DNA from: Jimgerdemannia flammicorona
Taxonomy: Eukaryota
Reading direction: 5' to 3'
NCBI GenBank assembly: GCA_003990765.1
Contig: RBNJ01000030.1
Span: 1-49,869, forward strand
Length of the DNA: 49,869 nt
The notes beneath the pieces are model-generated. The model was not told where the DNA came from. It saw only the letters and a list, made by a program, of their open reading frames with translations, and searched no databases. Shown here piece after piece: positions 13,514 through 47,406 of the stretch. Numbering within the stretch: position 1 is the first letter of the stretch; every line of letters begins with the position of its first letter. A program made the position numbers and the translations under genes.

Positions 13514-14994
13514 TGTAACAGTGACTCCAGAATGATGACATTAGCACAGGAGGCAGTCTTTCCTTACAAGCCACCAGATCAGAGCACAAGAAGATCATAT
13601 GGCATATGAGATGAGCAATGATGACCAACTGTGAGTCATTGAGACCACAGTATGAGTATCTTGAGGAATATAAAAGAAGAACCAAGGAACCACAGTTGCA
13701 GCAACCAATAAGAGCCACCAATCCCAAAATAGCTCAAAGACTTACTACAAATTAAATGCCTGCTGCTTGCCAAATCTCAAGGTCAAGGAACCACCAAGGC
13801 ATCTTGGTTGAAGAAAGGATGTTCCAAGACATCAGAAGCACCATGAGGACCCATTCAAGAAGGACTCCTAGTGTCAACCTGGGTACTGCAGATCCTTATC
13901 ACTTTATTCTCTACCATCGTAAAATGAAAACAAGGATCACCATTGCTACCAAATGCCTCCAAATGTGGCAGGAGTATGAAATAGGAAACCTCCACTGCCA
14001 GGAGTTCCTACAGGCCAGCACTCAAGAGCTACAAGATGCCACTCCCATGAATATACACGAAACAAGGACAGCTAAGAAGATCCATCAGATCTTCAGGCAT
14101 GCACCATGGTCAATCCCCAACTTGAAGTGTTTTAGTAGAAGACTTCTGGCATCCCATTCTCCAGGACAACCTAGATCAATTCCTGCAAGGATAGATCTCA
14201 GTATTCCAAGGGCCAAGCTTCTAGGTTAGACCTCCCCAAGATCCCACATTTGTTCCCTATTTTGTGGAAGAGAACCTCATAGACTGGAGAGCTCCAGATC
14301 TCCTTATCCCTGCTGCTGCCACTGTCAAATGTGATAACGTCATTGGCAATGATGTCATCCTGCATGACATATGTGAAGCATGCGAAGTACACAAAACGTG
14401 CGACCTATGTGATGACAATGGTGATGAGACAGATGAGACATTTGCAGACCTCATCTCCTTTGAAGACATCCTGACCTCTGATGAGGATGAAGCCTCTATG
14501 GTCTTGAACATTCTGCTCTAAGTCCCTTGGTTATACTGAATAATGCCAGCTCTGGCATTCTGAGGATGCAGAATTGTTCCAGCACCAGCATTCTGAGGTG
14601 ACACTGAATTATACCAGCATCCTGAACCTGTACAACCATCAGTGCCGACCCTGGAACTTAGCAGTTTTTCCTGTCCTGGCATTTTATTTTAGTTATTGGA
14701 ATTTATATTTAGCTTTATATCTTAGCAACCATTGAATTATATTTTGTATAAATATCTCTCTTATTTCCTCTGAAATAAAGTCAGTCCATTCAGTTCCTCT
14801 CAGTACAATATACACTTCCTTGCAAGCAATCTAAGAGATAACAAAACAGTTTAAAGATAAGAAGTTTGAGGACTATAAGACCTTAAGAAGGCACTCTAAT
14901 AAGAACTTGCTTATAACAAACTTGAGTTAGTCTAAGAGATATACTTTGAAGAGAATCTGGCATATTTGAAGGACTCAGCGACCACTACATGACA
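13514..14994 (+). repeat. 5' LTR of copy 2 (1481 bp)
   Basis: Direct repeat of 26563-28145 with a ~100-bp deletion near 14133. TATAAATA at 14747-14754, AATAAA at 14774-14779. Confidence 0.95.
13756..14521 (+). pseudogene. LTR(U3)-encoded accessory ORF, 5' LTR copy
   Basis: MPAACQ...LNILL*, broken by a deletion and TAG stops. Same frame is recoverable in two other LTR copies. Confidence 0.7.
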
Positions 14995-14997
14995 ACT

Positions 14998-15014
14998 TAG
15001 TGCCCATTGGCTAG
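14998..15014 (+). promoter_or_regulatory. Primer-binding site of family A (consensus TGGTGCCCATTGGCTGG; tRNA not assigned)
   Basis: Lies 3 nt after the LTR end. The motif is intact after the LTRs of copies 1 and 3; here TGG>TAG. Confidence 0.75.
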
Positions 15015-17464: not shown

Positions 17465-17494
17465 AGATCAACTAATAATCAAATATATTTCATT

Positions 17495-20400
17495 ATGAAC
17501 AGTACAATCAAAATTTTTTCTTTGAATGTAAATGGGCTACAGGGTGCTGTTAGATGTAGGAACATTTTTATTTGGCTAAGGGGATTGGAGGCTGATCTCT
17601 TCCTCTTGCAAGATATCAGGTGTGAGAATGACTCTGATAGAATGGAAGGGACAAAGGAATGGGGTGGCATGGCGATTTGGAATGGCAAGGTTGGGATTCT
17701 GGTTCAGAAAGGCAGAGGGGAGATAAGGGATGTGAGGAGCTGGAGGGAGAGACTGGTCTGGGGTGAGAGGATTCATGCAGGCTGGGAGCCAGTTACCATG
17801 GGCTCCTGTTACTGCCCTGCCATATGGGGGAGCATGTAGATTGGGTGAAGGGTCTCCAGGAGAGTGGGATCCTTGCAGAGGCTGGGGTGGATATGCTTGG
17901 GTGAGATTTCAATATGGTTCAGGATATATAGATGGATAGAACTGATGGTGGATGGGGTGCTGAGAGCAGGAGTGGGGGACTGGCGATGTGAGAGGAAGTT
18001 GAAAGACTAGGTGCACTGGTAGATACTGGTAGGGAGTACTGGGGGGATAGGAGTGTATATACACATTGGGCTGGAGGCCTGGGGACAAGGATCGACTAGA
18101 TTCTGATGGCCAACTGTTGGGGCCGAGATGTTTGAAAGTTGCTGGAGGTGGAATGGTGTCCATGGTCAGATCACTGGGGCCTTTTGGAACAGGGGTGCTT
18201 TGGGGGAAGTGGGGATGGGCCTGGATATTGGCACCTAAATGCCTTCTTGTTAGATGATGAGTCCCAGTAGAGAGAGTAGGCTAAAGACATTCAGCTGAGG
18301 GTGGAGAACTGGCAGCAGGAAGGTGCCTTGATTGGGGTCTGGTGGATGAGGATGAAAGAGATGGCCAGGATGTACTGGAGCGAGGCTGGCAAGGAGGCAG
18401 GGAAGCAGCAAAGGCAGAGAGTGCATTGGGCTTCTACTAGATTGGCTAGGCTTCTGGAGGAGTGGGTGAGACTGGCAATGGTGGAGGGAGAAGAGGATTG
18501 GAGATTAATGAGGGTGAAGATGGAGGTTGGGGAACTACAACAGGTGTTGCAGGAAGAGGAAGAGGCAAGGGTGCAAGCTTGGTGGCATGGCTTCATTGGC
18601 AGGGGCTGGAGGAAGGGGTGAGGCCTTCCAAGTTTCTCATGAGGACTCTTAGGGCAAGAAGGGTACAGCAACAGTGGGAAGGGGTACTTGACTCAGATGG
18701 TGTACTAGTGCATGGTGTACAGGATATTCTTGGATCACTGAAGGAGCAATGGAGTGGATTGTGGAATGAGGAGGAGGGTGGGGCAGATACTACTGCTATT
18801 GACCGAACATTGGAGGATTGGTACCCACCATAAGTTGAGGGATTAGGTGACCTGATGATGTCTGTAAAGGAGGATGAGATCCACCAGGTTCTTGTCATGA
18901 CAGCCTTAGGTACAGTACCTGGGGAGGATGGCCTACCCTGGGATTTCTGGAAGCGAATGGTTGGAGTCCCAGGTGTGATGGAAGAGTTGATGGCATTGTG
19001 TAACTTTATATTACAGACAGGGAGATGGGTGGGGGAGCAGGATCTTGGGCTGGTGATGCTGCTTTATAAGAACAAAGGAAGGTGAGAGGATTGGAAGAAT
19101 TGGTGGCCAATAATGTTGCTAGATATGGACAGAAAGTTGGTGACTAAGGTGGTGGTCGTGAGGCTACAGAAGGTAGCCCAGTAAGTTATAGGTATTGAGC
19201 AGAAGGAATTTGTGGGTGATTGGCTCATCAGAGATGGCACAGCCTGGGTACATAGAGTTATTGAAGGGGCTAGAGCCTGTGGACTGGATGGGCATCTAGT
19301 CTTCTTGGACCAGGAGAAGGCTTATGACTGGGTACAATGAGTCTGGCTGGCGAAAGCACTGGATAGAATGGAGGTTCTGATCCAATTTTGGTCAACAATG
19401 GTCAGCCTACTGGAAGGGAGTAGGGCTGTACTCATGTGTAATGGGCATAGAGGGGTAGCATTCCCTCTGGATAGAGGGGTGCCCCAGGGGGACCCACTGT
19501 CCCCCATTTTGTATGCTCTTTCCCTGGAACCACTAATGGACAGAATTAGACAAAGGATAGTGGGGCTCTCTATCTATGGCATTGGGTGGAAAGTTGGGGC
19601 CTTTGTGGATGATATGGTGGTTGGTTTGGGATTGATTGCTGATGTCGAGGAGCTCAAGGAGACAGTGGAGTGGAATGAGGAGAACTCTGGGGCAAAGCTG
19701 AATTGGCATAAGTGTGAAACAATAGTGCTAGGCAATGGCCTGGTGGGAGGAGAAGTTATAGGAACAATTGTCCCCACCAGTGAGGCAGTGCAGTACTTGG
19801 GCATCTATTTGTCTGTCTATGGGTCAGTTCTGCCCAGGCTTTGGTGGGAGCAGCAAATTGGAATTTGGGAGGAGGACCTGTGGGGTTGGGGGGGAAGACA
19901 CTTTTCTCTGGTGGGACAAGTCTCGATTTTGAATGTATATTGGCTGTCAAAGCTGTGGTATTTGGCTTATCATCTGGACTTCCCAGCCTGGGTGGTGAAG
20001 AGATTAGTGAAGGTGGCCAAGGGAAGAATTTGGGCTGGCAGACGGAGTCAGATTGGTTGGGAGACCTTGTCTCTACTGGTGGTGAGGGGTGGTCTTGGGC
20101 TGGTGGACTTTCTCAAATGACTACACTGCTTGAGGGCATGGTGGCTTAAGAGGGCAGTGGAGTTACGAGGAGGGGGTTGGGTTCCCCTGCTGCAGAAGGT
20201 CTGGGAGAGGCAGTCATTACTGAGAGGCTCAACTGGTGATCTCCTCTCATTGGTTGGACTTCAGAATACTGCACAATTATGTTATAAAGGTTTCTGGTGG
20301 GGGATAGTGGAGGGGGCACACCACATTGGTATTTGCTGGCAGGAGAATGAAGGGGAGGAGGCTTGGGACCCGGCAATGTGGAGATGGGATGGCATACTGC

Positions 20401-21150
20401 TGGGCAGTATACCATTACTTAAGTTCAATGTTGGTGATGGAATAGAATACCAAAGGGGACTAGGCCAGGATCTGTGGCCTAGTGGTTGGCAAGGAGTTGG
20501 CATTGGAGAAGAGTGAGACTGGCATGGTGTTTGGACCTGGAGTGCTACAGTGCAAAAATAGATACTGCCAAAGTACTGGGTGGTCTGGTGGTGCATGCTG
20601 AGGAGGAATGTAATGCTCAACTTCCATTCAGGGCACCTTATTATAGGGGGTTGCTTTGACTGTGAGGAGTGCCATAATGTGGAGCAGGAAGGGGGCTTTG
20701 TACAGATATCAGAACATTGGCTAGGAGAGTGTTAGGTGTGGGGAGACTTTTGGAGAACCATTGGGGACTACTTGGGGGTGAGCCGTAGGAGAGATGATGT
20801 GTGGGAGAGGTGGGAGGACTTGAGGGATTGATTGGTAGGAGGGGTAGGAAAGGAGTGGATTACTCTAGGCTGGGTATTAGCTATTTGGGTTGGGCTGGCT
20901 GGTCACTAGCTATTTGTTTTTGAGGATGGGAGGTGGCAGAGCTTGGAGAGCCAGTTATCATAGTGGCAGAGACTTATGGAAGACACCTTGACAGGCTGAT
21001 GGCTTGGTTGGGGGCTGTAGAGGGGTCGGAGGCGCCACTTGGTGGAGAAAATCTGTGGACAGAGCAGTGGAAGAGTTGGAGTCATTGTTGAGAGGGTGGT
21101 CTTTACTTGTAAAGGGGTAGGGGGGGGCTCCCCTATGGGGATTGTATAGT
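17495..21150 (+). pseudogene. LINE ORF2: AP endonuclease, reverse transcriptase, C-terminal Cys/His region (disrupted)
   Basis: SLNVNGL, LLQD and WSDH (EN); PGEDGLP, LDQEKAYD, GVPQGDPLSP, FVDD and YLGI (RT); CEEC..EHWLGEC. Confidence 0.93.
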
Positions 21151-23089
21151 GGGCAGTGATATTGTATACTTAATCATAGACTGGTAATAAAGATGGAGTC
21201 CAAGTGAAAAAAAAAAAAAAAAAAAAAAAAAAAAACATACTATACTGAAGAGATTAAGCAAGCTCTCAAGGATCAACTCAATACTATCTGCAAGGGACTT
21301 AGTGAAGATCCCAACTCATTGTATACCTGAATCTGCCACCATATTATCTTGGCTGGCTATGATGATACCCTCAAGGAACAAATAGCAGATTCAACCTTCC
21401 TCAAAAGAGTTCACTCTGAAATTGCCCTAGCAATCTGGTCTATCCCAGCTGCACTGACCCTTGATCAGAAAGTGGTCTTTGCACAGAGATATTGGACTGC
21501 CAGATACCCTGTTGAACACTCAATGGAGAAAATATCTAGCATCAAGATGGAGCCATCAAAGCCAACTAGTATCATATCTGCTACAGTTGTAAACAGACCA
21601 CCATCCCCACCTACCCCCAAGACAGCCAAAGCTGACCCAGTGGAGGAACTTGCCAAGCAGTTTGCCAAGATAACTGCACACCTTAGTGATGTTGTTAGAG
21701 AAGTCCAAAGTGCCAATAGGAGACCAGTGTAGAGATTTGTAGCTGCTACAGAAGAATGCAATATCACATACTTCAGATATAGAGAAGAAGGCCACTATGC
21801 AAAGAATTGCATGACCAAAACAAGATGCAAAGCTCAACTAAGCAATACTAGCAGAACCAGAGAACAAACTGATGCAGTAGTTATTGAGGAGATTGGTGAT
21901 ACTGATGATGAAGAATACTATGTGGAGCTTGAATTCTACCCTGCTACTGAAGGTACCAGAACCCAGTCCAAGCCCTATAGCAAGAAGAGCAACAGCAAGC
22001 CAGTTGGAAGACCAAAGAAGACCCCAGCTGTCACTATTCAAAGTAAGACTCAACCTGAGGAGATTGATCAAGACATGGAGTTAGATAAAGCTGCCTGCCA
22101 AATCATTGAAGGCACTACTCCAGTCTCAGGAGAAAGTGAAAGCAAGGAGGAATAGAAGCTGTGCAAGACCAAGATCCACCAGTATGATATCTACAAGGAC
22201 CTCAAGGAACAGAAGGTCAATACTACCTTTGGACAGCTAGCTAAAGTCCCTGTCTTCAGATAGCAGTTGAGAGTACGACTTGCAACTATTGCCAAGAATC
22301 AAGAGTACAAGATTGTAGAAGCTCACAATGTACAGGAAGAATCCGAAAACTCAGGTAAAGAATCTGAAGACCAGTACATGATATCAGCCTATACCCCGTG
22401 CCAGATTGAAGACTGTATCTTTGATGCCATCATTGATACTGGTGCCGGAGGATGCCTCATAAGCAAGAAGACAATTGACCACTTAGGCTGGGACATTGAA
22501 GAGTCCACCAAGATGGTCTATGTTACAGCAGATGGTACATAAGCTACCCCCCTTGGCAAAATCTGAGAAGTCTCCATCAAGATAGGAGGAGCTACCATCT
22601 CTGTAGAAGTGATTGTTACAAGTGCCACCAACTATGACATCCTCATTGGCAACCAATGGCTTCATAAGGCCAAGGCCATCATTGACCTCAATGCCCAGAA
22701 AATGCAGATCAACTATAGAGAGGGAAAGGTACAAGTCTCTATCAATGTCCACAAAGGAGTTCTACCAGACATGGAGGAAGGAGATGAAGAGGACACAGAA
22801 GTCTTCATGTACTTGGTGAACAAGATTAAGAACAAGACACTCAAGCTCACAGATGAGCAGTGGTATAACAAGATCATTGATGGCTATGCCCCTCAAAGAA
22901 GATGCCCCCATGGTACTAGGATGTACTACTCTGAACACCTAAATGACTGCTGGTCCTGTATTAGTGAAGTCAGGAAAGTCCACCAATAGATATAAGCAAG
23001 AAGCTGCTGAAGCAAAAAGGAAAGCTGAAGAAGATGACCAGGCCCCAGAGCTTCAGGCTGACAGTGATGACAAGGAGGAACAAGAACCA

Positions 23090-23520
23090 GATATCACCCT
23101 CAAAGTCAAGAAGTTCTATCCAGAAGCCAAGATCCCAGAATATAAGACTGAAGGAGCCATAGAAATGGACCTTGCCAGCATTCAAGATGCTACCCTTGAA
23201 CCACAGACCACCACTCTACTTGGCACTGAAATTGGAGTCAAGCTTTCAGAGAATCATGCTGGAATTATCAAGACCAGGAGCAGTCTGGCCAAAAGTGAAA
23301 TCTCAGTTGAAGGAGGAGTAATTGACCCTGATTACACTGGTGAGATCTTCCTCATAGTCAGGAATCACAACCCCACCACCCCATTCAAAGTCAAGAAGCA
23401 TGTCAGGATTGGCAAGATGCTGATTCACGAAATCAAGAAACCCAAGATCACTGAAGCCATTGAACTCATTAAGATCAAGAGAGGAGAACAAGGCTTCAGA
23501 TCTACTGGAAGAGGAGCCTA
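23090..23520 (+). pseudogene. dut: dUTPase domain between protease and RT (copy 2)
   Basis: GAIEMDL, KTRSSLA, GGVIDPDYTGEI, RGEQGFRSTG. Confidence 0.92.
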
Positions 23521-23689
23521 TGCTGCCACCAAGATTACCAAACTTGAACACAAGAAAGACAAGGACCAGAACAAGTATACATATACTATTGGAGAAAACT
23601 TTCCCCTAGAAGAACAACTTCTCAAGATCCTGTACCAGAATGAATGAATACTTGCTACAGACTTCAGGGATATCCACAACCAAGAACCC

Positions 23690-25018
23690 AAGTACTACCA
23701 TAAAGTTGACACTAGTGATACCAAGCCCATCTACCAGAAAGCCAGACCCATACCACCTGCCTATAGAGAATGGCTGCAAGCAGAACTCAGGGAAATAGAA
23801 GAAGCCAGAATCATTAAGCAAGCTATCAGTCCCTGGGCTTCACCCATTGTCCTTGCCCCAAAGAAAGGAAGCAAACCTGGAGAGTTTGCACCAAGACTCT
23901 GCATTGACTACAGGAAGCTCAATGCCATCACCAAGAAGGATAGGCAGCCCTTGCCAAATATTCAAGAAATCCTTACCACTCTTGGAAGTGAAGCCAAATA
24001 CTACACCACCTTGGATCTGTTTTCAGGTTTCCATCAGATTGATCTCACTCAAGATGCCAGTAGGAAAACAGCCTTCATCATACCAAACACCACCTATATC
24101 TACCTGCAAATGCCATTTGGAATGTACAATGCCCCAGTAAGTTTCCAGTAAATGATGAACAGAGTCTTCAGCAATGAGATTGGAAAATGGCTCTTTGCCT
24201 ATGTTGATAATGTGATCATCTTCAGCAATACTGCATGGAAATATATCAATTACATACAGCTAGCCCTCAAGAAGCTCAAGGAGCATGGCCTCTACATCAA
24301 GCCTATAAAATGTAAGTTTGCAGTCCAGGAAATTGCCTATCTAGGACACCTCATCAACCAGACTGGAATCCATACAGACTCCATGAAGATTGAGGCTATT
24401 GCCATCTACTCAAAACCCAGAACAACTACAGAAGTCCATGCCTTCCTTGGACTGGCCAGCTACTACAGAAGATTCTTCAAAGAATACTCCAACATTGCAG
24501 CACCTATCTATGAGCTACTGAAGAAGGAAACCAAATTCAAATGAACCAAGGAACACCAAGAAACCTTCAATGAACTCAAGACCAGGTTGACTCAAGCACC
24601 TATCCTCAGAAGACCAGATTGGAACCTAGAATTCATCCTGCATACAGATGCGAGTACTATAGAACTTAGAGCAGTTCTAGCTTAGAAGAAAGATGGACAT
24701 GAATATGTCATCTCCTATACAAGCCAAGGTACCTGCAGAGCAGAATAGAATTATAAGTCATGTAAGCTTGAATGCTTAGCAGTAGTTTGGGCAGTAGACA
24801 AGTTCTACTACTATCTAACTGGGAAACACTTCACCATTCAAATAGACCATTCTGCTCTTGCCTGGCTATTCCACACTCTGAACCCCAAAGGAATATATGC
24901 CAGATAGATCTACAGGCTGCAAGAGTATGAGTGTACTGTCAAGCACTACTCAGGAAGAACCAATACCAATGCTGATGCACTCTCAAGGACACCCATCAAG
25001 ACTATTCAACATGAATAA
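23690..25018 (+). pseudogene. pol: Gypsy RT and RNase H
   Basis: SPWASPIV, RLCIDYRKLN, LDLFSGFHQI, MPFG, YVD(D>N), FILHTDAS, LECLAVVWA, DHSAL, NADALSR. Confidence 0.93.
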
Positions 25019-26250
25019 GGAGTTATACTATGGATTAATCAGCTACCTTGAGCAGCAGAAGTTGCCCAACCACCTTGAACTCTGGACAATCACTATCATC
25101 AACTGGACTTAGAAATAGTTTGAACTAGACAACACTATACTCAGAAAAGGAGGAAAGCTAGTAATACCCAAACACAAGAAGTATCAAGTAATGAAGGAAG
25201 TACATGAGCAAGGACACCTAGGAGGAACCAATATATACAACAAGGCAAGATGGTGACCCAAGATAGAAGAAGACCTGTGTCAATTTGTCAAAAGGTGTGA
25301 CAAGTGCCAAAAACAGAAATAAGATCAGCAAAACCAGGTACCCAGGTCATTAAGAATTGAGCCTATCCCCTTCTACTATATCACAATGGGTATCATTGGG
25401 CCACTACCAGTAACACTATCAGGAAACTACTATATTATAGTTATTGTAGACCTCTTTAACAAATAGATAGAAGCAGGAGCATTACAAGAAGCCAATGCCC
25501 TCTCTATAGCTGACTTCCTGCACTGAGAAATCATCTGCCGCTACAAGACACTGAAGCAAATCACAACAGACTGCAACACAGAATTTGTCAATGGATTCTA
25601 TGAGATAATATATCAGAAATACAAGATCCAGCACATCAAGACCACTGCATATCACCCTTAAGGAAATGGACAGACAGAGAGAACCAATAAGACCCTCAAT
25701 AACATACTGGCAAAGATCTCAGAGACATATGAGAATTGGGATAACTATCTCTCAACTGCCCTCTCTGTCCTATGAGATATATGATCACAGAGCACACACT
25801 TTACCCCAAGGGAGCTGCTCTTCGGAGAAGAAGATTCTGATAGAACCTCAGCCATGAATCTAGACATAACTTGGAGATGGGTAGTTGCAGAAATCCAGAG
25901 ACTATACCAAATCAGGAAGAAGGCTAAAGATTACATCATCATGTCACAAGTACTGATGAGAAAGAATGTAGAAAAGAATCACAAGACTCTAGAACTCATC
26001 CAAATTGGAGAAAAGGTTCTACTGTATCAAAATATGGTAGAAGCCTCATAGTCATGAAAACTGGAGCCCAAATAGGAAGGACCCTTCTATATGCAACATA
26101 TCAAGGGAACTACCTTCTAGCTTAGAAAAATCTCAGAGACTATACTGCCTACTATGGTACATAGGAACAGACTCAAGAAGTACCATGAACCTATATAAGT
26201 AAAGCAAAATGTGATGACCACCCATGAGGTTCTAATCCATGAATCATAAT
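25011..26250 (+). pseudogene. Gypsy integrase (HHCC, DDE, GPF); no chromodomain seen
   Basis: HEQGHLGG..CDKCQ, IIGPLP, TTAYHP*GNGQTERTNKTL, KLEPK*EGPF, VHRNRLKKY. Confidence 0.9.
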
Positions 26251-26562
26251 AGCATATCCTGTGACTAGCAGGATATCTGTCTGGACCATTCTCTAAGAGA
26301 TATGGCACCAGCAACTACTCATCTATAAGACTTTTGAAACCAGAGAAGTTCAAACCATCAACTGATTGGTCAAGATCAGAATCAGGCCCTTGCTCTATAT
26401 GAAGGGAGCAATCCTTCACCATCACACCAAAATACAAAGAGAAGACACCAGCCTATAAACACCACTTTTCGACCCCCTGCCAGAGGTTATGGGATCAGCA
26501 AATTTTTCAGGACTGGACCAATGAATAAGGATACTTGAGAAGATCCTTATTCAGGAGGAAGA

Positions 26563-28145
26563 TGTAACAGAGACTCCAGAATAATGACATCAGCACAGGA
26601 TACAGTCTTTCCTTGCAAGCCACCAGATCAGAGCACAAGAAGATCATATAGTATATGAGATGAGCAATGATGACCAACTGTGAGTCATTGTGACTACAGT
26701 ATGAGTATCTTAAGGAATATAAAAGAATGATCAAGGAACTGTAGTAGCAGCAACCAACAAGACCCACTAATCCCAAAATAGCTCAAAGACTTACCACAAA
26801 TGAAATGCCTGCTGCTTGCCAAACCTCAAGGTCAAGGAACCACCAAAGTACCTCAGTTGAAGAAAGGATGTTTCAAGACATCAGAAGAGCCATGAGGACC
26901 TGCTCAAGAAGGACTCCTAGTGTCAACCTGGGTACTGCAGATTCTTATCACTTTATCCTCTATTACCATGAAATGGAAACAAGGATCACCATTGCTACTG
27001 AATGCCTCCAAATATGGCAGGAGTATAAAATAGGAAACTTCCTCTACCAGCAGTTCCTACAGACCAGCACTCAAGAGCTACAAGATGTCACTCTCATGGA
27101 TATATATGAAATAAGGACAGCTAAGAAGATCTATCAGATCTTCAGGCCTGCACCATAGTCAATCCCCAACTTGGAGTATGTTAGAGTCTCAGATTTCAGT
27201 GACCTGTCATCCCACTATATCAATTACTAGAAGCCAGGGTGACTATAGAAGCCCAGTCCACTATCACCCTCAATAGTGATGAAGTAGAAGACTTCTGCCA
27301 TCCCATTCTCCAGGACAACCCAGATCAATTCCTGTAAGGATTGATCTCAATATTCCAAGGTCCAAGTATCTAGGTTAGACCTCTCCAAGACCCCACATTT
27401 GTTCTCTATTTTATGGAAGAGAACCTCATAGACTGGAGAGCTCCAGATCTCCTTGTCCCCACTGCCACCACCATCAAACATGATGACATCATTGGTGATG
27501 ATGTCATCCTGCACAATATATGCAAAACACATGAAGTACATAAAACTTGCAATCTATATAATGATGATGATGTCAAGACAGATGAGATATTCATGGACCT
27601 CATCTCCTTTGAAGACATCCTGACCTCTGATGAGGATGAAGCCCCTTTGGTCTTGAACATTTTGCTCTAAGTCCCTTAGTTATACTGAATAATACCAGCA
27701 CTGACATTCTGAGGTGATGCAGAATTATTCTAGTACCAGCATTCTGATGTGACACTGAATTATACCAGCATCTTGAACCTGTACAACTATTAGTACCGAC
27801 TCTGGAACTTAGCTGTTTTTCCTGTCCTGGCATTTTATTTTAGTTATTGGAATTTATATTTAGCTTTATATCTTAGCAATCATAGAATTATATTTTGTAT
27901 AAATATCCCTCTTATTTCCTCTGAAATAAAGTCAGTCCATTCAGTTTCTCTCAGTGCAATACACACTTCCTTACAAGCAATCTAAGAGATAACAAGATAG
28001 TTTAAAGATAAGAATTTTGAGGACTATAAGACCTTGGAAAGGCACTCCAATAAGAACTTGCTTATAACAAACTTGAGTTAGTCTAAGAGATATACTTTGA
28101 AGAAAATCTAGAGTATTTGAAGGACTCAGCAACTACTATGTGACA
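26563..28145 (+). repeat. 3' LTR of copy 2 (1583 bp)
   Basis: TGTAACA...TGTGACA, preceded by a PPT. Direct repeat of 13514-14994. Confidence 0.95.
26805..27670 (+). pseudogene. LTR(U3)-encoded accessory ORF, 3' LTR copy (~288 aa in consensus)
   Basis: 866 nt from ATG to TAA. One 1-bp deletion (~27225) and transition-type stops relative to the other copies. Confidence 0.72.
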
Positions 28146-28349
28146 ATATATAGTATGAGTAACTTCCTTATGTAGAATGGTCTGGAAATTTAGCAGTTTC
28201 TTTCTTGAGTAGTAGATGATTTCTATATAGTATGATAATCTCCAAAAGCATGTGATTTCTGGTTTGATGATCTTGGTGGTATGGTATAATACAGTAGATT
28301 GGCAGATAACTTGATTTAGTATAAATTCTCCTAAATCAGCAGACTTCTT

Positions 28350-28460
28350 GAATAATAACTCAGATAACTTAGACAATGTAAATAACTTGATAACTCAGAT
28401 GGTGCAGATATGTAGCTTGATAACTCAGATGGCATAGATAACTTGATAACTCAGATTCTC
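28350..28460. repeat. Short degenerate tandem repeat (TTGATAACTCAGAT core)
   Basis: ATAACTCAGAT occurs four times in ~100 bp. Confidence 0.7.
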
Positions 28461-28735
28461 TTCTTGACAAAGTTATGTCAGAGATAGGCTCTATTTGTAT
28501 GGGGTTATGTCAAAAAACTGGCTTTACTGTAAAGTTACATCAAGTAGACTGACTTTGTAACAAGATGTGTACTTCAAAATATTATAGATACTTGGAAAAA
28601 GTTACCTCAAAGACTGGCTATATTTGTACAAAGTTGTATCAAGATAGACTGGCTTTATAGTAAGATAATAGACTTTATTAAGAATGGTAGCTTTTTCTTA
28701 ATCAGCAGATTTCTCTTCAAATGGCAACAAAGTTC

Positions 28736-29160
28736 TTCACATTTACTTGAGTGGTAAATTCTTTTAAATTCAGACTCATTCTTTATATCAGAAAGTGGAC
28801 CAGAGTAGAAATAGACAAACACTTTTTTTACAGTGACTTATTAGTAGGTTTCTCCTTCTAAATATACTAGATAATTAGCTTTTGCTTTTGATTTTCAGAC
28901 TGAGGTTTATTTACTCTTATCTCTGGGGTATTTTATACATTATGGTTGCTATCTGGTTGCTATATGGCTAACTATAGAATTCTCTTTATGGCAGGTGTTC
29001 TTGGTTCAGTATAGTGTTCTGTTCCAGTACAGTGTTATGGTCTGATATAGTATACTTATCCAGTACAGGTAAACACACCCTTTCTGATATCTCTAGCTAA
29101 TTATACAGATTGGTACAGTAAAGCAGTCTTGGTTACCTAGTGTACCTGTTAGTATGTGAT
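28736..29160 (-). repeat. Probable degenerate solo LTR related to the short family A LTR
   Basis: CTGAGGTTTATTTACTC..CTGGGGTATTTTATACA (~28900-28940) resembles 4580-4620. Ends uncertain. Confidence 0.5.
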
Positions 29161-29368
29161 TATTTTTTAATTCTAATAGTATAAATTCTGCTGCTCATTA
29201 CAATATATAAATTTACTAATTTCCATATTTACTATATTTTCAAATTTCAATAAAGATATTTCTGTAAATAGAGTCTTTCGAAATTGGGAGATATTAAGGT
29301 TGTTTATATTTCTATTCATTTTATATCTAAAAATAGTAAAGAGCAAGAACATATATCTGCTCTTTATA

Positions 29369-31990
29369 TTAAGTTTCCTGGGAGTCTGTTACAATGGTGC
29401 CTGCTTTGCTCCTATTGATTGATAATTTAGCCAAGTAGGAGAAAAGATGCTTTTGGTTCCAATTGATGAGAGTAACATTGCTTTCTTCATTCTCAGCAAG
29501 GAGTTCGAAAATATCCTCTTCGCGTAAGGATGCGAATTTGACTGCATTTACCATACTATTGAAAAGAAGTGCATGAATTAGTATGCCCTCAAGGAGACTG
29601 CTAGGGTGCGAGTAGAAATTAGGGAATCATATAGAGGTCAATTTATATACGTTTTCCCAGAGTAGGGAAGAGAGCTACAACCACTTCACAACTACATAAC
29701 GGTGACACAATGTTTCGCGCATGGTTCCTTCGCAGACTATCCAATGAAAACTAACTGGCTAACCAAGGCCGATGGACTGAGGCACACGTACCAGATAGCT
29801 AAGTCTCTCGATGACGTACATGATTCACTGCAAATTTCACAGTGCATTTTTCTGTATTTGGAAAACATTATTGCCCGATAGGCCAATGACGTCTCATCGA
29901 CATCGAAGATGCAAAGTGGTTGTCACCGCATTGCCCCTTCTGCTCTGGTTGAAAACTGCTCGCGACTAATAAAGATCCTGCAGTAGCTGAGATTAGCAAA
30001 AATAATGTTTAATGTTAATCTCCCGGTCTGCGAATGTCAGAGGGGCAATAAACGTTATCAGATTCCATATCTTTGCTGTGCCTTCTGGTGGCTGATAGGA
30101 AAGGAGTGTTTCCGATCACTGCCACATGACCAGAGCCATACAATGAAAGTTGCCAGCACGCGAGAACCCAATATTAAAGATTCCCAGCCATATCTTAACT
30201 CATCATGCAGCACACAATTGGTGATACGTGTCATAGCTGGCTTTTTTTTATATGAAGTATCTGGTGCGATAGTTCTAAGCGAATCTTGTGACACAATGGC
30301 AAATAGGGTCGGAAGAACTTTAAAATAACTTAGAGTCATATATAACATGCTCTGAGCAATGCTCTAAATTATGAAAACCCCATTATTGTATGTGTTGGGT
30401 TTAGTGCTTTGTAGAAACAATTATGGTATTTTCTGCACTATTATATCTTAGTCGTATATACAGCCAATATAATTATCAACCATGAAAACTATTACTTATC
30501 TCACCCACAAAGTGACAAGATAAACTCTGAGACGAGTCTTCTAGTATGAGCAAGTGCAAGACGTGAATAGTAGAGTTGTAGTGAGATAACGAATATTTTG
30601 ACAAGGCCAATCCCATAAATCGAGCTTTGAATTGAAACGGTCAATAATATGATTGTTACATTCCCAAGTTGGTTCAGATTTATCGCTGCATTCCTTTTTC
30701 TGCCTCCAATTTCATCAATCGCCGTGCGAGAACGGTCGATCATTTGTTTGTCATTTGTATGTCACTGGGAACCTGAATGATAATGAAATCCCTAAGCGAG
30801 CTTATGTGGCTATTTTTGTATTATTTGAAATACTCATAAGTTCGAAGAGGTATTTCAGAATCATGACTTTACTACTACTTCAATGCGGATAAGAATCAGA
30901 AAGAAGACTGAATATGTCGTAGAAGAAAATAGGATAAACTGACCATTTAAATATGATTGATTCAACCAAACCAAATCTTGAATAGTCAGAACATCTGATG
31001 CCATTTTGAAACGCTTTCAGTTGGTCAAATTCACTACGTATATCAAATGAGTACTTCGTTGAGGCTTCTACCATCTTACATAATGTCCTATTCCTAGCTA
31101 CTATTTCAAAATTTAAATCGCCAGTCACGACTGACTTTTAAATAAAGAAATCTCTTGGAATGATACACCATAAAAATATCATTCAAAGAGGACCAGCTAT
31201 TAAAGATGTCATCAAGGTCTGCTTGGGCATGAACATGGGCCTGACCAGGAGCCGTTCTGTGAATTCTCAAATTAGATTTTTGCCTAATAGGGTCATATAC
31301 TTATACAACATACCATTCAATACTATGGGTCGTAGCTGGCATAGTAATCTTTTCTATTTTATACGAAGAAACCTGTGCGATGGTTCTAAACAAATCTCGA
31401 GACACAATGGCAAACAGGCTATGATAGTGTAAAAGGAACTGTAAAATATCATAGAGTTTTATATTACTTGCTCTTCAAATCATTTTGGAAGCGTTCTGAA
31501 ATTGTGGTATTATTTCTAGCAGGAGTGCTCATGTTTCTCCATTGTGGTGAAGGCAAACTCATCGCCCTCATAAGATTGCATAGTAGCGACGACATTGCGA
31601 TGTTTGACATCGATGGCGATTAGCATCTCGCAACGGAAATAGCGAGTTGATGTGGCGACGCCCCTCGACCTTGAGTGCGGTTTTTAGCCCTTCAGGGTTT
31701 TCAGCTTCGGGAATCAACCCAAAAGTTCCCGACCGAGCTCCATGACCACGTGTAGATTCTTGATAATACTGGAGCCTACGGGAAAAGAGTAAAGTCGGGT
31801 TCAACAAGTTCCGTTTCTCCGAGATTGTGTTAGGCAACGTCAGTTTCAGGGAGGTCGTGTTGGTCGGAATCTGTTCCGGAGAGGTCGCTTTGAGCGAGGT
31901 CAGTTACGGCGAGTTCGCGTTGGACGAGATCAGGTCCGAAGTCATTCGACGTGCTTGGCTTTATCTTTAGGGATAACAAAAGGGGTCATA
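29369..31990 (-). pseudogene. Multi-exon host-type gene or pseudogene of unknown function
   Basis: CpG-retaining DNA with protein-like minus-strand segments (29369-29554, 30058-30330, 30880-31128, ~31320-31440) and GTATGT/YAG signals. Exon structure not resolved. Confidence 0.4.
31800..31945 (-). repeat. Degenerate 15-bp tandem repeat
   Basis: Plus-strand units GAGGTCGTGTTGGTC/GGAATCTGTTCCGGA/GAGGTCGCTTTGAGC/GAGGTCAGTTACGGC/GAGTTCGCGTTGGAC/GAGATCAGGTCCGAA. Confidence 0.65.
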
Positions 31991-32509
31991 AATTGTTTCT
32001 TCGGAGTTTCCCCTCAAGGAACTCAAACACGAACGAAATGATTATTCATAGGAGCATAAGATACCAGGTGCTTCTCGGTCGGTTTGGGGTCGCTGTTGTG
32101 GCGTGGGGTTCGCGTTAAGCCGATAGGTAAAAATACTTTGTTATGGCAACCATATATGGACAAGCTGGTTTCCGTAACTGACAACAACAGGAAGGGTACC
32201 TTGCCTGCCAGACGTCGCAACAACGATTACCCTAGTGTTCTTAGATGTAGACGCTTTTGCCGCCCTCCAAAGACCAGAGTTCGAAATCACCATATTAAGG
32301 GTGATATAGAGAACCCAAATATCTGAGGAGAAACAATAATATATTAATCGTGTTCCAGCACAAGGTTCCGGTGATATATAGCCGGGGTGCCACCTACCGA
32401 TTAAAATTTGACATTGCAATGGAAATACGCGATATCGTCCAGCATCGGCCTGAATGCCTATTTCAATCCTGTGTTGGAGACGGCGACAGGCGCCTGGATG
32501 AACCTTTTG

Positions 32510-34335
32510 GAGAAGGAATAAATACGTCGGTCAAATTATTTGCGTTGAGTGCTGTTACTGGTAGGACTTCCAAACGAACTCGTCGCCAACAACTGCGTGA
32601 CTGCACAACATACCTTTTGGTTGTCCTGCACATGGCCATTGAACATGTCGCCTCGAGTTGGCTTTGTCCACCTTTGGGACAATAAAAAAGGAATCGATAA
32701 ATCAGCATTGCGTCGAGTTCTGGTAATCTTGGATATTGCACAAAACAAACTCGTCGCTTACAACTTGGTGGCAGCACAGCATACTTTTTGGCTGCATATT
32801 GGTATTGCACGTCGTTGACAAGAGTTGGTGACAGGAAGGTTGGGAAAATTTTTGAGTTGTCGCTAGGTGCTGCCGCCAAAACATGTCGCCTTCGGTTCAG
32901 TTGATTTTTTTTTTGGAACAATAAAAGAGGAGAATAAATAAATTAGTCAAATACTATTGCGTCGGGTGCCATTAATCGTAGGTCTTGCACAAAACGAATT
33001 CGTCACCAACATATAGGATTCCTTGGACTAAACAAGATATGTTTGTGGCAGCACAGCCTACCTTTTGTTTTTTCTGCTTACTAACATTGCACGTCGTTGA
33101 CAAGAGTTAGTGACAGGGAGGCTGACGTCGTTGAGATGGCGCTCGGTTGTTGTCAGCTTCGAGGAGGAGAGTTTGATAGCAGAGGTGTTGCCCACAAAAC
33201 ATTTCGCCTTCGGTTCAGTTGACTTGCCTTTGGAACAAGAAAAGAGGAGGAATGAATAAGTCAGTCAAATGCTATTGCGTCGAGTGCTGTAAATCGTAGG
33301 TCATACACAAAATGAACTCATCGCCAACAACCGGGATGCCTCGGATTAAACAAGCGACTTGTGGGTGGAATTATAGCATACTTTTTAGTTGTTCTGCATA
33401 TTGACATTGCACGTCGTTGATAAGAGTTGAGCAAGACTACGGACGTTGTTGATATGTCGCGCGGTCGCCGTCAGCTTCGAGATGTCGCCACCCGATCGTG
33501 TCGGCTCCCAGATCGCGTCGCCTCGAGTTCGGGCTTTGGCTCGGTTGTGACAATAAAAGAAGAGGAGTAAATACGCCAGTCAAATACTGTGCGTCGAATG
33601 CTGTTAATCAGAGAGACCTTACACAGAGGAACTCGTCACCAACAACTGGAATATTTCGGATTAAACAAGCAATGTATTATAGGCAGCACAACATACCTTT
33701 TGGTTGTTCTGCATATTGGTATTACACGTCGTTGACAAAGAGATGGTGACAGGATGGCTGCGGACGCTGTGAAAATGTCGCTAGGTCGCCGTCGGCTTCG
33801 AGAATAGTTTCACTACGTAGGTGTCGCCCCCTAATCGCGCCGCTTCGAGTTTGGGATTTGGTTCGGTCGACTTGCCTTTCGGACAATAAAAGTGGAAGAA
33901 TAATACATCCGTCAAATACTATGCGTCGAGGGCTCCTAATAATGCCTTTTCGTTATTCTGCATATTACCATTGCGCGTCGTTGGCAGGAGTTGGCGACAT
34001 GAAGGCTGTGGACGTTGTTGAAATGTCGCTCGGTTGCCGTCAGCTTCGAAAACCGTTTCACTGCGCCGATGTCGACCCCAGATCGTATCGCCTCGATTTC
34101 GAGCTTTGGTTCCGTTGACTTGCATTTGGGACAATAAAAAAGGAGGAATAAAATACGTCAGTCAAATACTATGCTTCGAGGCCTCTTAATCGTACGCTTT
34201 ACAGAAACGCCAACAACTGGGATGCGTCAGATTAAACAAGTGATATATTGGTAGCACTACATCATACCTTTCAGTTGTCCTGCATACTGGCATTGCACGT
34301 CGTTGACAAGAATTGGTGACAGGAAGGCTGGCGAC
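32510..34335 (-). repeat. Tandem array of ~7 diverged ~250-320-bp units (exon+intron-like)
   Basis: GCACGTCGTTGACAAGAGTTGGTGACAGG-like core near 32807, 33090, 33409, 33725, 33973 and 34296, plus a partial unit at ~32520-32700. Confidence 0.88.
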
Positions 34336-36569
34336 GGCTGAATGTTTTGTAAAATTTTGCGAGGAAGCACGACGAGCGAGGTAGGCTGGAAACGAAGGGT
34401 CGGAGAAATTATTCTAAAGGGTGGGTTTTTGAAAGGAGATATTTCGAGGCAGGAGAGAGTTCGAAGAGGCAGGGGGAAAAGGGGTAGCAATGGGCGACAG
34501 GGGAAGCCGTTTCGTGTGGGGGTGTGGCGTTTAAGCAGACCAAACTGGGACTGCGATTCTTAGTCGTCCCATATCGGTCTCCACTCAACTTGATCGCCCC
34601 TCCAAAGAATCATATTCGATCTCTTTGTATCTTACGATTATTTGCCATTAGATCACTTGAACCTAGTCCTATCACGCGTGCGCACCGGCTCTTCATGGCG
34701 GGCTACAAACGTACAAGCGAAACCATCGAATGGCTATAGGTGTGTTCTGTAAGGCTTTGCCGTTTTACGAAATTTTTATGAGCCTAGCTCAAATTTCGGC
34801 TATGGGGCCCAAAGCGAAATAGCTCACGAACAATTGATTCAGTATCAGTTTCATTATGCTAGTATTATCGGCAGTTCCTTTACGCCCACGGCGCTAGCTC
34901 CATTACATGTTCTCTTCATCTGCGCATACACTACTCTATTGAACATCAACATTATACTTTACGGCCACTTGCCATTCAGCAATATATAAGTTTATATACC
35001 CCCTTACTCATCCCCCTTTCTGTTTATATGGCTGTTCGTTCAGTAAGGTTGCATTATCGCCATAGAATGTTCCACAATAAACCGCCCAAAGGTTATTATA
35101 TTTTGGTGACACTGTCTCTCCTGGCGAAAATTTTTTTATTTTTATTTTTATTTTGGGCGCGGCAAAGGAATGATAATCATAAAGTCACTAATATGGCTCA
35201 CCACATGACACTCCATCATATTTCGTGATTATTAATGCGTTCCTCCAATTCAAATCGTCCTGATTAGCGATTCTAATATGAATTTTCTCCTTTATCGACT
35301 TATTATTTTTGTCCATGTCGTCTTCAGTGGATGCCGGTTCCGCCGATGAATGACTTTGTAACCGCTGACAGTTTTCCACAATGTCCATCCGTACCGAAAC
35401 CCTCAACGATGCAAGACAGTCCAAGGATATTATGGCGCTGCCCACCTTGGATAACAACCGAGGAGGCGCTTATATATGATTTCGTAGACGCCGTGAAAAG
35501 TGTACCCGCAAGTCAGGGGCCGGATATCAAGCCGACTATCAACGCATCGCACGGCAATATTACATGGTGCACTTACATCTTAGTAGGCTTGAGCGGCAAG
35601 TTGTTCAAAATCGCTTCGATGCCGTTATGGGAGAGATAACGAAGGGTTTATGGCCAGATGTCCTCAAAACAGTAACAGCAAAAAGTTTTTGAATCAACGT
35701 GTAATGTACGGAATGAGATATTTTCTAAAAGGTGATGTTCCTCAGGAATGCCTTACAAAATTTTCGGCATCACCGTGAAGGAACTCTCGGAAGCAATCGA
35801 AAAATACATGGAATATGACAACAAAGTCGGTGAGATCGATGAGTTCAATGAGGATTAGATCGCCCCCCCTTTTTTTTTACTCCTTTCTCCTTCAGTGATA
35901 TTCAAGCTACGTATGATATATCCAACACAGTTCGAGGCTTACATCTCCTGAAAGCACGCGGAAAATAAACAAGCCATCATAGCGCAAATAAACAATGGGG
36001 CCGACGTATCAATGACATCCGAATTCAAGACAGACTGTAGACAAGCGATGTTACCAAGATCGTGATAGCCGAAGGACGAAATGTTACAAGAGTAATTGCT
36101 TCTGCGCTATAGGAAATGATAGTGCCGATGGAGCACCCGCACCTGATAAATTTTAATGTCATCATGTTAATGTCATCACTAGTAAGTCTGCCACCACAAA
36201 AGCAAGGTCAAGGTGTCTAAAAAGCACCTTGTCAAGAGGAATTCAGATTTGACGGCGTAAGAGAGATTCTATTGAATGAAGAAAATGCATAATAAATTAA
36301 TGCTGACCTGTTTAAGCTCGTTTAGTTCTTTCTGATCGTGTATACGGATTCTCGGGAACAATGCTTAGACTGGATGAGATCAGCAAAAATAGGTGTGAAT
36401 TCCGCTTGGTCCCACCCATGTCCGTTGTCCCGCTCTCCACCTGGGCGCGCGCCAGAAACTACCGCAGACCTGCGACGACATCTTAGACATGGATGACCTG
36501 CCAACCCCCCGGCCAACATTTACACACCCCATCGCTGTTATAGATATTCCCCTCGCACCTCCACCACTC

Positions 36570-37150
36570 CTCCCCATCGCACAGTACGCAGGCAACCTAA
36601 CTCAAAATCTATATCTGCGGCCCCCTCATGGGCGCAACCGTCCTCGCATTCATTACCATTCACCACCTAATCTCTCCCATCACTCACCTCTCGCTCGCCG
36701 GATGCCACCGCATTACCGACACTTGTCGCAGCTCACTGCCTCAAATTCCAGCACCTCGACCTCCGCGCCTGCGGTCTCACCTTCGACGTGTCAATCATCG
36801 CAGTAGCTCGCACTTGCCCACCTTAATATCGGCCACGTTCTAGAGCGCGACCACATCACTGATGCCTCCATCCTCCTGCTCGCTCGACTCACCCAGATCG
36901 CCGTGCTCGGCTTCGTGGGATACGACGTTACGGACGAGTGCATACTAGACATGTCCTAACATAAGGGGACGCGCTCGAGCTTGTCTTAGACGACAACTAC
37001 CACGGAATCATCGATTGTTCCAACAGCTCGCTTGTCGATAAGTGCAAGAAGCTCGCGGTAGTCAGCCTTAAGGAGTACCGTCAGTTAAGGATTTCGAAAT
37101 GGTTGATGAGCTCGTTCAGCGCAAGGTGTTACTCACCTTGTGAGCAGTAG
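36570..37150 (+). pseudogene. RNI-like/cysteine-containing leucine-rich-repeat (F-box-LRR type) pseudogene
   Basis: Across frames: ITHLSLAGCHRITD, HLDLRACGLTFDVSIIAVARTCP, HITDASILLLAR, GYDVTDECI, DKCKKLAVVSL. Multiple frameshifts. Confidence 0.7.
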
Positions 37151-39151: not shown

Positions 39152-39187
39152 GGGTTCAAATATCAGGTAAAAATTTCTTCAACTAGA

Positions 39188-39224
<37 letters not shown>

Positions 39225-39346
39225 ACAAGGGATGAACAAAATCGGATCACGGATTTCTTATCACTAATTCAAATCATTCGATGGACAACCTAGCTTTTGA
39301 TAAACTAATAACCTTTTGCTACTATCAAGCCCTTTCCATTCTCTCT

Positions 39347-39347
<1 letters not shown>

Positions 39348-39409
<62 letters not shown>

Positions 39410-45800: not shown

Positions 45801-47303
45801 GACAATAGTGGCTACATTGAACTTGTCTCTGGCAGGTCCTCTGAGACTGACTGGTAGAAGAGCCAATTGTGCATCCATACCAAGGGCTTATACAGTGGCA
45901 AATTGTTCAAAGTCTTCAATGAAGGTCAGGATTGACTCTTCAGTAGTATATCTATAGAATATGGGGGGATGCATTTCTATCTTGTCTTGAATTCTTGCAG
46001 AGGTGACTCTTGTAGTCAGGGTAGTTATTGTGGAGGTTGTTCGTTTTTTAGCTTGAAAGTGAGGGATTCTTCTTGAATCACCAGCCAATGGGCACCAAGT
46101 TGTCATATAGTGGTCGCTGAGTTCTTCAAATATATCAGATTCTCTTCAAGGTATATCTTTTAGACTAACTCAAGTTTGTTATAAGCAAGTTCTTATTGAA
46201 GTGCCTTCCCAAGGTCTTATAGTCCTCAAACTTCTTATCTTTAAACTATCTTGTTATCTCTTAGATTGCTTGTAAGGAATTGTATGTATTGCACTGAGAG
46301 GAACTGACTTTATTTCAGAGGAAATAAGAGGAGTATTTATAAAAAATATAATTCAATGATTGCTAAGATATAAAGCTAAATATAAATTCAATAACTAAAA
46401 TAAAATACTAAGACAAGAAAAACTGCTAAGTTTCAGGGTCAGCACTGATGGTTGTATAGGTTCAGGATACTGGTATAATTCAGTATTACATTAGAATACT
46501 GGTGCTGGCATTATTCAGTTTAACCAAGAGACTTAGAGCAGAATGTTCAAGACCATAGGAGCTTCATAATCAGAGGTCAGGATGTCTTTGAAGGAGATGA
46601 GGTCTATGAACATCTCATCTGTCTCATCATTATCATCATATAGGTCACATGTTTCACATACTTTGTGTGCTTCATTGCGCATCTCACATATGTTATATGG
46701 GATGATGTCATCACCGATGATGTCATCACATTCAGTGGCATGAAAATCAGGGGCTCTCCAATCTATGAGGTTCTCTTTAACAAAATAAGGGACAAATGTG
46801 GGATCTTGGAGAGGTCTAATCTGGATGCTTGGGCCTTGGAATACTGAGATCAATCCTTACAGGAATTGGTCTGGGTTGTTCTGAAGGATAGGATGCCAGA
46901 AGTCTTCTACTTCATCACTATTGAGGGTGATAGTGGACTGGGCTTCTGTAGCTACCCTGGCTTCTAGTACATTGATACAGTGAGATAGTAGGTCTCTGAA
47001 ATCTGAGATTCTAATATACTCCAAGTTGGGGATCAACCATGGTACATGTCTGAAGATCTGATGGATCTTCTTAGCTGTCCTCATTTCATGGTAAGTGGTA
47101 TCTTGTAGCTCTTGAGTACTGGTCTGTGGGAACTTCCAGCAGAGGAGGTTTCTTATTTCATACTCCTGCTACATTTGGAAGCATTCAGTAGCAATAGTGT
47201 TCCTTGTTTCCATTTCATGGTAGTAGAGGATGTAGTGATAAGGGTCACCAGTACCCAGGTTGATACTAGGAGTCCTTCTTAAGCAGATCCTCATAGCTCT
47301 TCT
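42873..47303 (-). mobile_element. Ty3/Gypsy family A copy 3 (partial long LTR, PBS, gag-PR-dUTPase-RT N-terminus)
   Basis: Close homologue of copy 2. ORF-track pieces ending at 45888, 45657, 45255, 44445, 44085, 43200 and 42870 all share one frame. LTR 46101-47303. Confidence 0.93.
46533..47303 (-). pseudogene. LTR(U3)-encoded accessory ORF, copy 3 (N-terminus cut off by hAT)
   Basis: 46857-47084 and 46533-46853 are in frame, separated by one TAA that is CAA in the 5' LTR of copy 2. Confidence 0.72.
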
Positions 47304-47406
47304 TAGTGCTCTGAATTAGTCAATTCAAATCAAATCTGGATTCGATTTGTCACATGACAGTTTGATCTGAAACTCAAATCTGAAGCCATCTAAATCAACT
47401 TAGATT

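Follow-up and report, generated by a model that had tools for sequence, protein, structure and literature searches.

We analysed a 49,869-nucleotide window (contig RBNJ01000030.1 of Jimgerdemannia flammicorona, assembly GCA_003990765.1, positions 1 to 49,869 of the forward strand) that contains a full-length Ty3/Gypsy long terminal repeat (LTR) retrotransposon of 14.6 kb, element 1, at 13514-28146, as well as the truncated LTR of a second element. The LTRs carry copies of a frame of ~288 codons, here called the LTR gene, which occupies positions 243-1108 of the 1584-bp LTR and lies wholly within it. A sequence-only reading of the same DNA had proposed an accessory coding frame inside the LTR, and the depletion of stop codons, the insertions and deletions (indels), the ratio of nonsynonymous to synonymous substitution rates (dN/dS) and the existence of open homologues all bear this out; we consider it likely that this is a real, conserved protein gene lying wholly inside an LTR and dead in this window. 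Three copies lie where that reading had placed them (13756-14521 and 26805-27670 on the plus strand, and 46533-47303 on the minus strand), and a tblastn search of the window with eight family members found only these three. The gene spans had, however, been given as the extents of the LTRs, which are far longer (13514-14995 and 26563-28146).

All three window copies of the gene are dead. The deletions described earlier, of ~100 bp in the 5′ LTR (101 bp as measured) and of 1 bp in the 3′ LTR, were both found, and wherever one copy has a stop, at least one of the others has a sense codon. It had also been said that no lesion is shared by all three copies. This holds, but two stops each occur in two of them: the TAG at 'SI*VRP' (27371) is common to the two LTRs of element 1, and the 3′ LTR shares the TAA at 'FL*GL' (27335) with the third copy (copy 3, in the second element). 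The same frame is present in all three copies, as had been stated, but not at its full length, as copy 3 is broken off at about 47303-47315, which has removed its start codon and some 22-26 initial codons; this part of the consensus rests on two copies. In place of the first ~320 bp of the copy 3 LTR, positions 47316-47700 (minus strand) hold degenerate short repeats with GGATTTGGATTGA-like units.

Four independent lines of evidence (stop depletion, in-frame indels, substitutions and open relatives) indicate that the frame is coding, the open relatives being the strongest of them. Copy 3 has two stops in this frame over 260 codons, as against 14, 32, 9, 13 and 25 in the other five frames, and none of 20,000 base shuffles of copy 3 had two or fewer. 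The five indels that separate element 1 from copy 3 within the frame (9, 15, 12, 3 and 3) all have lengths divisible by three, compared with one of the four outside it (35, 1, 9 and 2) and none of the three that are private to one LTR of element 1 (101, 1 and 2); these private indels date from after insertion or, for one of them, perhaps from just before it. Soil-metagenome contigs give three resolved replacements in the hypervariable stretch of the gene, all of which change its length by multiples of three (−36, −48 and −36), as well as a 3-base TGA insertion that adds one codon in frame; the sole resolved joint outside the frame alters length by 53. A dN/dS near 1 between subfamilies had been named as a sign against the proposal; between the element 1 and copy 3 lineages, as measured by the NG86 method on these decayed copies, it is 0.37-0.38, against 0.58-0.86 in the two shifted frames, and 0.28 at codons where both element 1 LTRs agree. 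The 5′ and 3′ LTRs of element 1 give no signal when compared with each other (0.60, with 0.51 and 0.78 in the shifted frames), as expected for an LTR pair that diverged only after insertion.

A word-indexed search of public proteins returned five open homologues with 54-70% identity to copy 3, one of which, of 271 amino acids (aa), spans the whole protein from MPA.. to ..LNFLL. An exhaustive profile search of 1.84 billion representative sequences identified five clusters and nothing further, with members 47, 40 and 28% identical to the 271-aa homologue (E values of 3e-52, 2e-42 and 3e-11), and two further cluster members bring the open relatives to 11, of 138-342 aa and about 28-80% identity among themselves; the close relatives are about 247-290 aa long. 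The start (MP..), the block structure and the C-terminal motifs are retained in the distant members, which also match the window in the LTR-gene frame by tblastn (E values of 2e-39 and 6e-31). The earlier reader had recognised no homologue, and in the Pfam, PDB-sequence and exhaustive hidden Markov model (HMM) searches we likewise found no relative of known function; a match to a captured host exon or to an open reading frame (ORF) of another transposable element (TE), which would have spoken against an accessory gene, did not appear either, since the exhaustive HMM search returned the gene's own family only. The LTR gene thus belongs to a protein family, unannotated until now, that is carried inside an LTR, numbers 11 members or more and has no known relative.

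Searches for the DNA of relatives by protein-pattern scans gave 243 pattern matches in metagenome_contigs and 125 in viral_contigs, with none confirmed in either, and no match was obtained with a degenerate DNA pattern that encodes a conserved peptide of 11 residues. The scan of genome_contigs gave 56 pattern matches with a single 'confirmed' one, a 15-residue stretch in a bacterial metagenome-assembled genome (L001), which we take to be a chance match. Longer fused forms of the family were not present among 2424 candidates, which is weak evidence.

It could be argued that the LTR contains a non-coding U3 (the unique region at its upstream end) with an open frame that arose by chance, and that the public homologues are artefacts of gene callers run on LTR copies. 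Consistent with this, all of the open homologues lie on short contigs (778-4848 bp), are annotated at most as 'hypothetical protein', and have no known domain. The shuffles nevertheless never reach the observed lack of stops, the indels come in threes inside the frame and not outside it, and the relatives, at 28-47% protein identity, keep frames that are open over 200-342 aa and conserved in blocks, their divergence excluding recent near-identical copies; the chance-frame explanation is already contradicted by these data, and we give it almost no credence.

The window copies have decayed in a characteristic way. The observed/expected ratio of CpG is 0.02 in the 3′ LTR, 0.07 in element 1 and 0.10 in a long interspersed nuclear element (LINE) nested within it, against 0.88 in the 14.7 kb between the elements (28147-42872), and the Gypsy and LINE copies have an excess of TG/CA but no excess of TA. 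To judge from these dinucleotides, the CpG loss resembles the outcome of cytosine methylation and deamination targeted at repeats, not that of classical repeat-induced point mutation. Polarised differences among the copies are mostly C>T and G>A; apparent private T>C or A>G changes number 26 in the 5′ LTR and eight in the 3′ LTR, and the most satisfactory reading of the excess in the 5′ LTR is that the 3′ LTR and copy 3 took C>T hits in parallel. With such parallel hits, the shared stops may themselves be parallel, or else element 1 inserted with a dead gene. We suggest that C-to-T mutation targeted at TEs decayed the copies after, and possibly just before, insertion. The LTR family is also present at 80-99% likeness in all four sequencing runs examined, three of which are soil metagenomes from different studies and one of which is from a coded organism. 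Metagenome contigs carry the base that is missing after 27224 in the 3′ LTR copy, and have A for C at 27148, turning a Pro into the conserved His of the family.

Several points weigh against the view that this is a functional, conserved LTR gene. The open homologues are known from protein alone, and location in an LTR is shown for the window copies only; the dN/dS signal, derived from three decayed copies, is a modest one; the 40 metagenome variant places listed, of 317, do not include the three positions at which the 3′ LTR has stops; and the runs examined for the LTR family are DNA or contig runs, none of them RNA. As the AlphaFold2 model of the protein is poor, the function that we propose below draws on composition and motifs alone. 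Both element 1 LTRs share the TAG at 27371, so that the gene was perhaps dead at insertion, and if element 1 inserted with a dead gene then the gene could be dispensable in cis; a plausible alternative for the shared TAG is parallel CpA-to-TpA hits, in line with the excess of 'reverse' changes in the 5′ LTR. The same TAG, as if a gene-dead element had still transposed, and the death of all three window copies would also suit a dispensable passenger, in which a host or foreign gene was captured into the LTR of one lineage, tolerated there, and lost at no cost. We think this improbable. The frame, the start and the C-terminal motifs are kept down to 28-47% identity, with frame-keeping indels, and such persistence needs long purifying selection within the family; moreover, no relative with another architecture or annotation was found in the exhaustive search. 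A conserved gene that has died in these particular copies therefore remains our preferred reading. The features of the gene, its LTRs and the carrier element are listed in Table 1.

Table 1. Positions of the LTR gene, its putative control signals and the carrier elements in the window
Feature	Position	Strand	Remarks
LTR gene, 5′ LTR copy	13756..14521	+	Pseudogene with 2 stops and a frame-breaking 101-bp deletion; open homologues match in two frames (tblastn)
LTR gene, 3′ LTR copy	26805..27670	+	Pseudogene with TAG 27156, TAA 27335 and TAG 27371; 1-bp deletion after 27224
LTR gene, copy 3	46533..47315	-	260 codons in one frame plus stop codon; 2 internal stops, no frameshift
Hypervariable part of the LTR gene	27436..27600	+	Not alignable among homologues; contig cover at >=80% likeness collapses
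TATA-like box TATAAAAG	26718..26725	+	LTR position 156, 87 nt 5′ of the ATG; second instance at 13669 (5′ LTR); putative promoter
TATAAA (27898) and AATAAA (27925)	27898..27930	+	LTR 1336/1363; kept in all three copies; putative promoter and poly(A) signals
5′ LTR of element 1	13514..14995	+	1482 bp; internal 101-bp deletion; ends TGTAAC...GACAA
3′ LTR of element 1	26563..28146	+	1584 bp; TATAT next at 28147-28151
Primer-binding site region, tRNA-type	14996..15012	+	Starts TAG (mutated) here; TGG in copy 3 and metagenome contigs
gag (CCHC) and pol of element 1 (protease, dUTPase, reverse transcriptase, RNase H, integrase)	21234..26562	+	All carry stops and frameshifts
Polypurine tract	26553..26562	+	Directly 5′ of the 3′ LTR; read straight from the sequence
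5′-truncated LTR of the second element (copy 3)	46100..47303	-	Runs on into the internal region, to 42873

The protein resembles nothing of known structure or function in the databases searched. Against Pfam-A, the window frame gave nothing significant, the only row at E ≤1 being SWI-SNF_Ssr4_N at 0.044, which is under its cut-off; the open homologues had no Pfam match at 0.01, and a profile search of PDB sequences had none at E ≤1. An AlphaFold2 model built from a 9-row alignment is poor (mean predicted local distance difference test score, pLDDT, of 44.5), with its best block at about residues 131-150 and helices through 18-184, and a Foldseek search with it gave no match in the PDB at E ≤0.001, a result of little weight on so poor a model. 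The fold and profile checks suggested along with the original proposal have been run, as AlphaFold2/Foldseek and PDB-sequence searches, and yielded no match. In the ESM Atlas the best feature score was 0.83 and all structure rows had a template modelling (TM) score <0.5, and the Atlas model of the 271-aa homologue has a pLDDT of 0.35.

The proteins of the LTR gene have isoelectric points of 4.5-5.9, and the 271-aa homologue carries a net charge of +8 in its first 60 aa and of −23 between residues 151 and 270; the maximum 19-aa hydropathy of 0.59-1.05 indicates a soluble protein without a membrane segment. Conserved blocks read W-x-E/D-Y-E-I, A-K-K-I/V-H-Q-x-F-R-H, N-P-I/L-L-x-D-N-P-D-Q-F/W-L-Q, F-Q/E-G-P-x-I and P-Q-D-P. 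The acidic tail noted in the sequence-only reading is conserved in the family and includes short hydrophobic motifs, namely I-D/R-W-R-A/S-P, one to three copies of D-L-I-x-F, and a terminal V/I-L-N-F/I-L, with these motifs flanking the hypervariable stretch on either side. The layout is that of a basic N terminus, a predicted helical middle, and a strongly acidic C-terminal third that is probably disordered.

The Cys/His cluster, which had been described as a feature of the C-terminal end, did not survive alignment, as it falls in the hypervariable stretch and its Cys and His residues are absent from the aligned open homologues. We considered whether the protein could be a zinc-binding regulator of the Cys/His type, given the pattern C-x2-C-x2-H-x2-C-x2-C of the 5′ LTR copy where it corresponds to ~27520-27570. 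However, cysteine is enriched in the decayed window copies alone (2.6%, against 0.8% in the open homologues), and the hypervariability of the stretch and the lack of these positions in the open homologues mean that the alignment already contradicts a zinc-binding role, which we regard as most improbable. At columns where the homologues have Arg, eight of the 29 window residues are H, C or Y.

The frame was said to lie upstream of a TATA box, and it does lie 5′ of the TATAAA/AATAAA pair, ending 228 nt before TATAAA and 255 nt before AATAAA. As these form the usual promoter and poly(A) pair of an LTR with a short R (the segment repeated at both ends of the genomic RNA), we infer that the gene is in U3, and that the pair marks the U3/R border. 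A second TATA box precedes the ATG by 87 nt and is suggestive of a promoter internal to the LTR, which would act in every LTR and not in the 3′ LTR alone, and we hold it possible, with some reserve, that the LTR gene is transcribed from this promoter of its own. Fungal introns are short, and on this basis, and with an assumed fungal host, expression by long-range splicing from the 5′ leader seems less likely. The same upstream box could instead be the start of whole-element transcription (LTR 156), in which case the gene would be real but the frame would lie in a very long R rather than in U3, as the first cistron of the genomic RNA and a leader ORF ahead of gag. The perfect TATAAAAG at that distance from the ATG, with no further ATG between the two in the less decayed 5′ LTR, fits such an arrangement. 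The second TATAAA, 27 nt before AATAAA in all three copies, reproduces the usual short-R layout, though, whereas with an R of ~1.2 kb each genomic transcript would meet a poly(A) signal after 1.2 kb and scanning to gag would be blocked; we therefore judge a long R to be unlikely and favour U3 for the gene.

A scan for promoters and terminators of the bacterial type, which is not applicable here, gave nothing above shuffles. Tandem Repeats Finder reported one 12-nt, 2-copy array only in the LTR. Between the gene stop and the TATA box, at 27680-27790, imperfect direct repeats sharing ATACCAGCA can be made out by eye but are absent from the Tandem Repeats Finder output. About one unit (35 bp) is missing from copy 3, and the repeats could be enhancer-like.

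We propose the following model for how the LTR gene may act. Owing to its position in the LTR, it is copied by reverse transcription to both ends of each new insertion, and it also persists in solo LTRs. Transcription would start from the gene's own TATA box 87 nt before the ATG and end at the LTR poly(A) signal, making each LTR a self-contained unit from which an mRNA of ~1.2 kb could be produced. The product would act in trans as a regulatory or adaptor protein, with its acidic hydrophobic tail resembling an activation module or one that recruits host factors, and it could plausibly serve to boost LTR transcription or to counter silencing. An activator or adaptor function fits the basic head, the helical body and the acidic, motif-bearing tail, and we offer it as a speculation that is more doubtful than not. 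We are similarly tentative about the broader proposal, that each LTR, solo LTRs included, is an autonomous gene, with promoter, a frame of ~270-290 codons and poly(A) signal, making a trans factor that raises transcription of the family or blunts its silencing by the host.

Retrotransposon LTRs are treated as non-coding control regions and are masked by annotation pipelines. If the broader proposal is true, a soil eukaryote, probably a fungus, would harbour a 'complex retrotransposon' whose gene parallels in function the regulatory genes known from complex retroviruses, and thousands of LTR remnants would amount to a dispersed multigene family. A conserved protein gene wholly within an LTR would mean that accessory genes at repeat ends occur beyond vertebrate retroviruses, and that solo LTRs could remain protein-coding after loss of the element. 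For a genome with heavily CpG-depleted repeats, it would also supply a definite candidate for a regulator or counter-silencing factor encoded by a retrotransposon. The family itself, with 11 or more members and no known relative, is added for testing.

One close parallel is with complex retroviruses. HIV/SIV nef and spumavirus bel/bet overlap U3, spumaviruses have internal promoters, and the Sag protein of mouse mammary tumour virus (MMTV) has a membrane segment. The MMTV 3′-LTR ORF resembles the LTR gene in being a coding frame inside an LTR, and the frames of the complex retroviruses are also alike in lying upstream of the LTR TATA and poly(A) signals, so that they are duplicated to both ends. 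The possible promoter of the LTR gene itself recalls the internal promoters of spumaviruses. The differences are substantial, however: no sequence or fold similarity to Sag, Nef, Bel or Bet was found (by Pfam and PDB-sequence searches, and by Foldseek on the poor model); the LTR protein, unlike Sag, has no membrane segment; and the carrier here is a Ty3/Gypsy element without env, with the frame wholly within the LTR and not overlapping its edge.

Additional ORFs (aORFs) of LTR retrotransposons occupy the internal region, either on the LTR side of gag or past pol, before the 3′ LTR. Like the LTR gene, the aORFs of plant Ogre/Retand/Athila-type and bdelloid rotifer elements are extra conserved ORFs of unknown function besides gag-pol. 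Such aORFs are mentioned in the abstracts of PMC7264820 and PMC5408684. The LTR gene differs from them in being inside the LTR and in having no detectable homology outside its own five clusters, and a term search of the plant aORF review (PMC7264820) found no mention of ORFs in, within or into LTRs.

The dUTPase-bearing fungal Gypsy elements and chromoviruses (PosPlaTy3-5, Phanerochaete elements and Tuber Tmt1) share with element 1 a dUTPase in pol. In PosPlaTy3-5 of Postia placenta the dUTPase lies between protease and reverse transcriptase, and the passages of PMC2864245 consulted report no gene inside the LTR, although for some elements a figure legend there labels an 'add. ORF' whose function is unknown. 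Passages on Gypsy clades in a truffle genome paper (PMC12581995) have nothing on LTR genes. A chromodomain, which chromoviruses carry at the integrase C terminus, was not detected in the eight decayed 3′ pieces of pol of element 1 (25119-26535). Many of the papers on ORFs in LTRs concern MMTV, and in the two fungal papers that use the phrase it means pol ORFs or has another sense; in the literature searched, leaving supplements aside, we found no report of a retrotransposon of this sort with a conserved gene that lies wholly within its LTR.

Element 1 is a Ty3/Gypsy (Metaviridae) element by its LTR pair, target-site duplication, primer-binding site (PBS), polypurine tract and pol order. Its paired LTRs are direct repeats with 89.4-89.7% identity (self-comparison, two BLAST segments), both starting with TGTAAC and finishing with GACAA (ends of the TG..CA type), and TATAT is duplicated on both sides of the element (13509-13513 and 28147-28151); the contig depth in run X1 drops from ~1075 to 8 at 28146, the end of the 3′ LTR. 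The TGG-type PBS begins 2 nt past the 5′ LTR, and its letters trail the LTR end as loose ends in contigs of three of the four runs (X1, X4 and X7); there is no complement of the PBS region of at least 9 nt within the LTR that would point to self-priming. Pfam matches in pol are to Asp_protease_2 (4.5e-6), dUTPase (4.4e-23), RVT_1 (2.3e-14) and RT_RNaseH (2.7e-14), together with a match to Integrase_H2C2 in a decayed frame at an E value of 3e-4, under the curated cut-off. The order protease-reverse transcriptase-RNase H-integrase is that of Gypsy, with the dUTPase sitting between protease and reverse transcriptase, and the closest relative of pol is a JGI protein that is 88% identical.

Other repeats account for much of what else we noted in the window. 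Pfam searches with 42 other window ORFs found TE domains only, and an Rfam scan of the entire window gave no matches. The LINE-like non-LTR retrotransposon nested in the gag region of element 1 (15351-21234, plus strand, ~5.9 kb) has an RVT_1 match at 19341-20117 (1.9e-15) and a 29-nt poly(A) tail ending at 21234, and is bounded by a direct repeat of ~11-12 bp of the target (CATACTATACT); copy 3 is without this insertion. A second Gypsy fragment with a dUTPase, a diverged one, lies at 1-5000 (minus strand): its protease is at 2251-2898, its dUTPase at 1537-2247 (3.8e-24), and its DNA is ~74% identical to element 1 over 650 bp; it has no LTR in view, and tblastn finds no LTR-gene copy there. 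Imperfect tandem or dispersed repeats with a period of ~315 bp and 73-78% identity lie at 32865-34340, in an otherwise unique stretch, and their ORFs have no Pfam match. A large inverted duplication at 5341-12517 pairs 5341-6210 with 12517-11632 and 6123-8162 with 10706-8653 at ~72% identity; its ORFs are likewise without Pfam match, and it possibly represents two head-to-head copies of another repeat.

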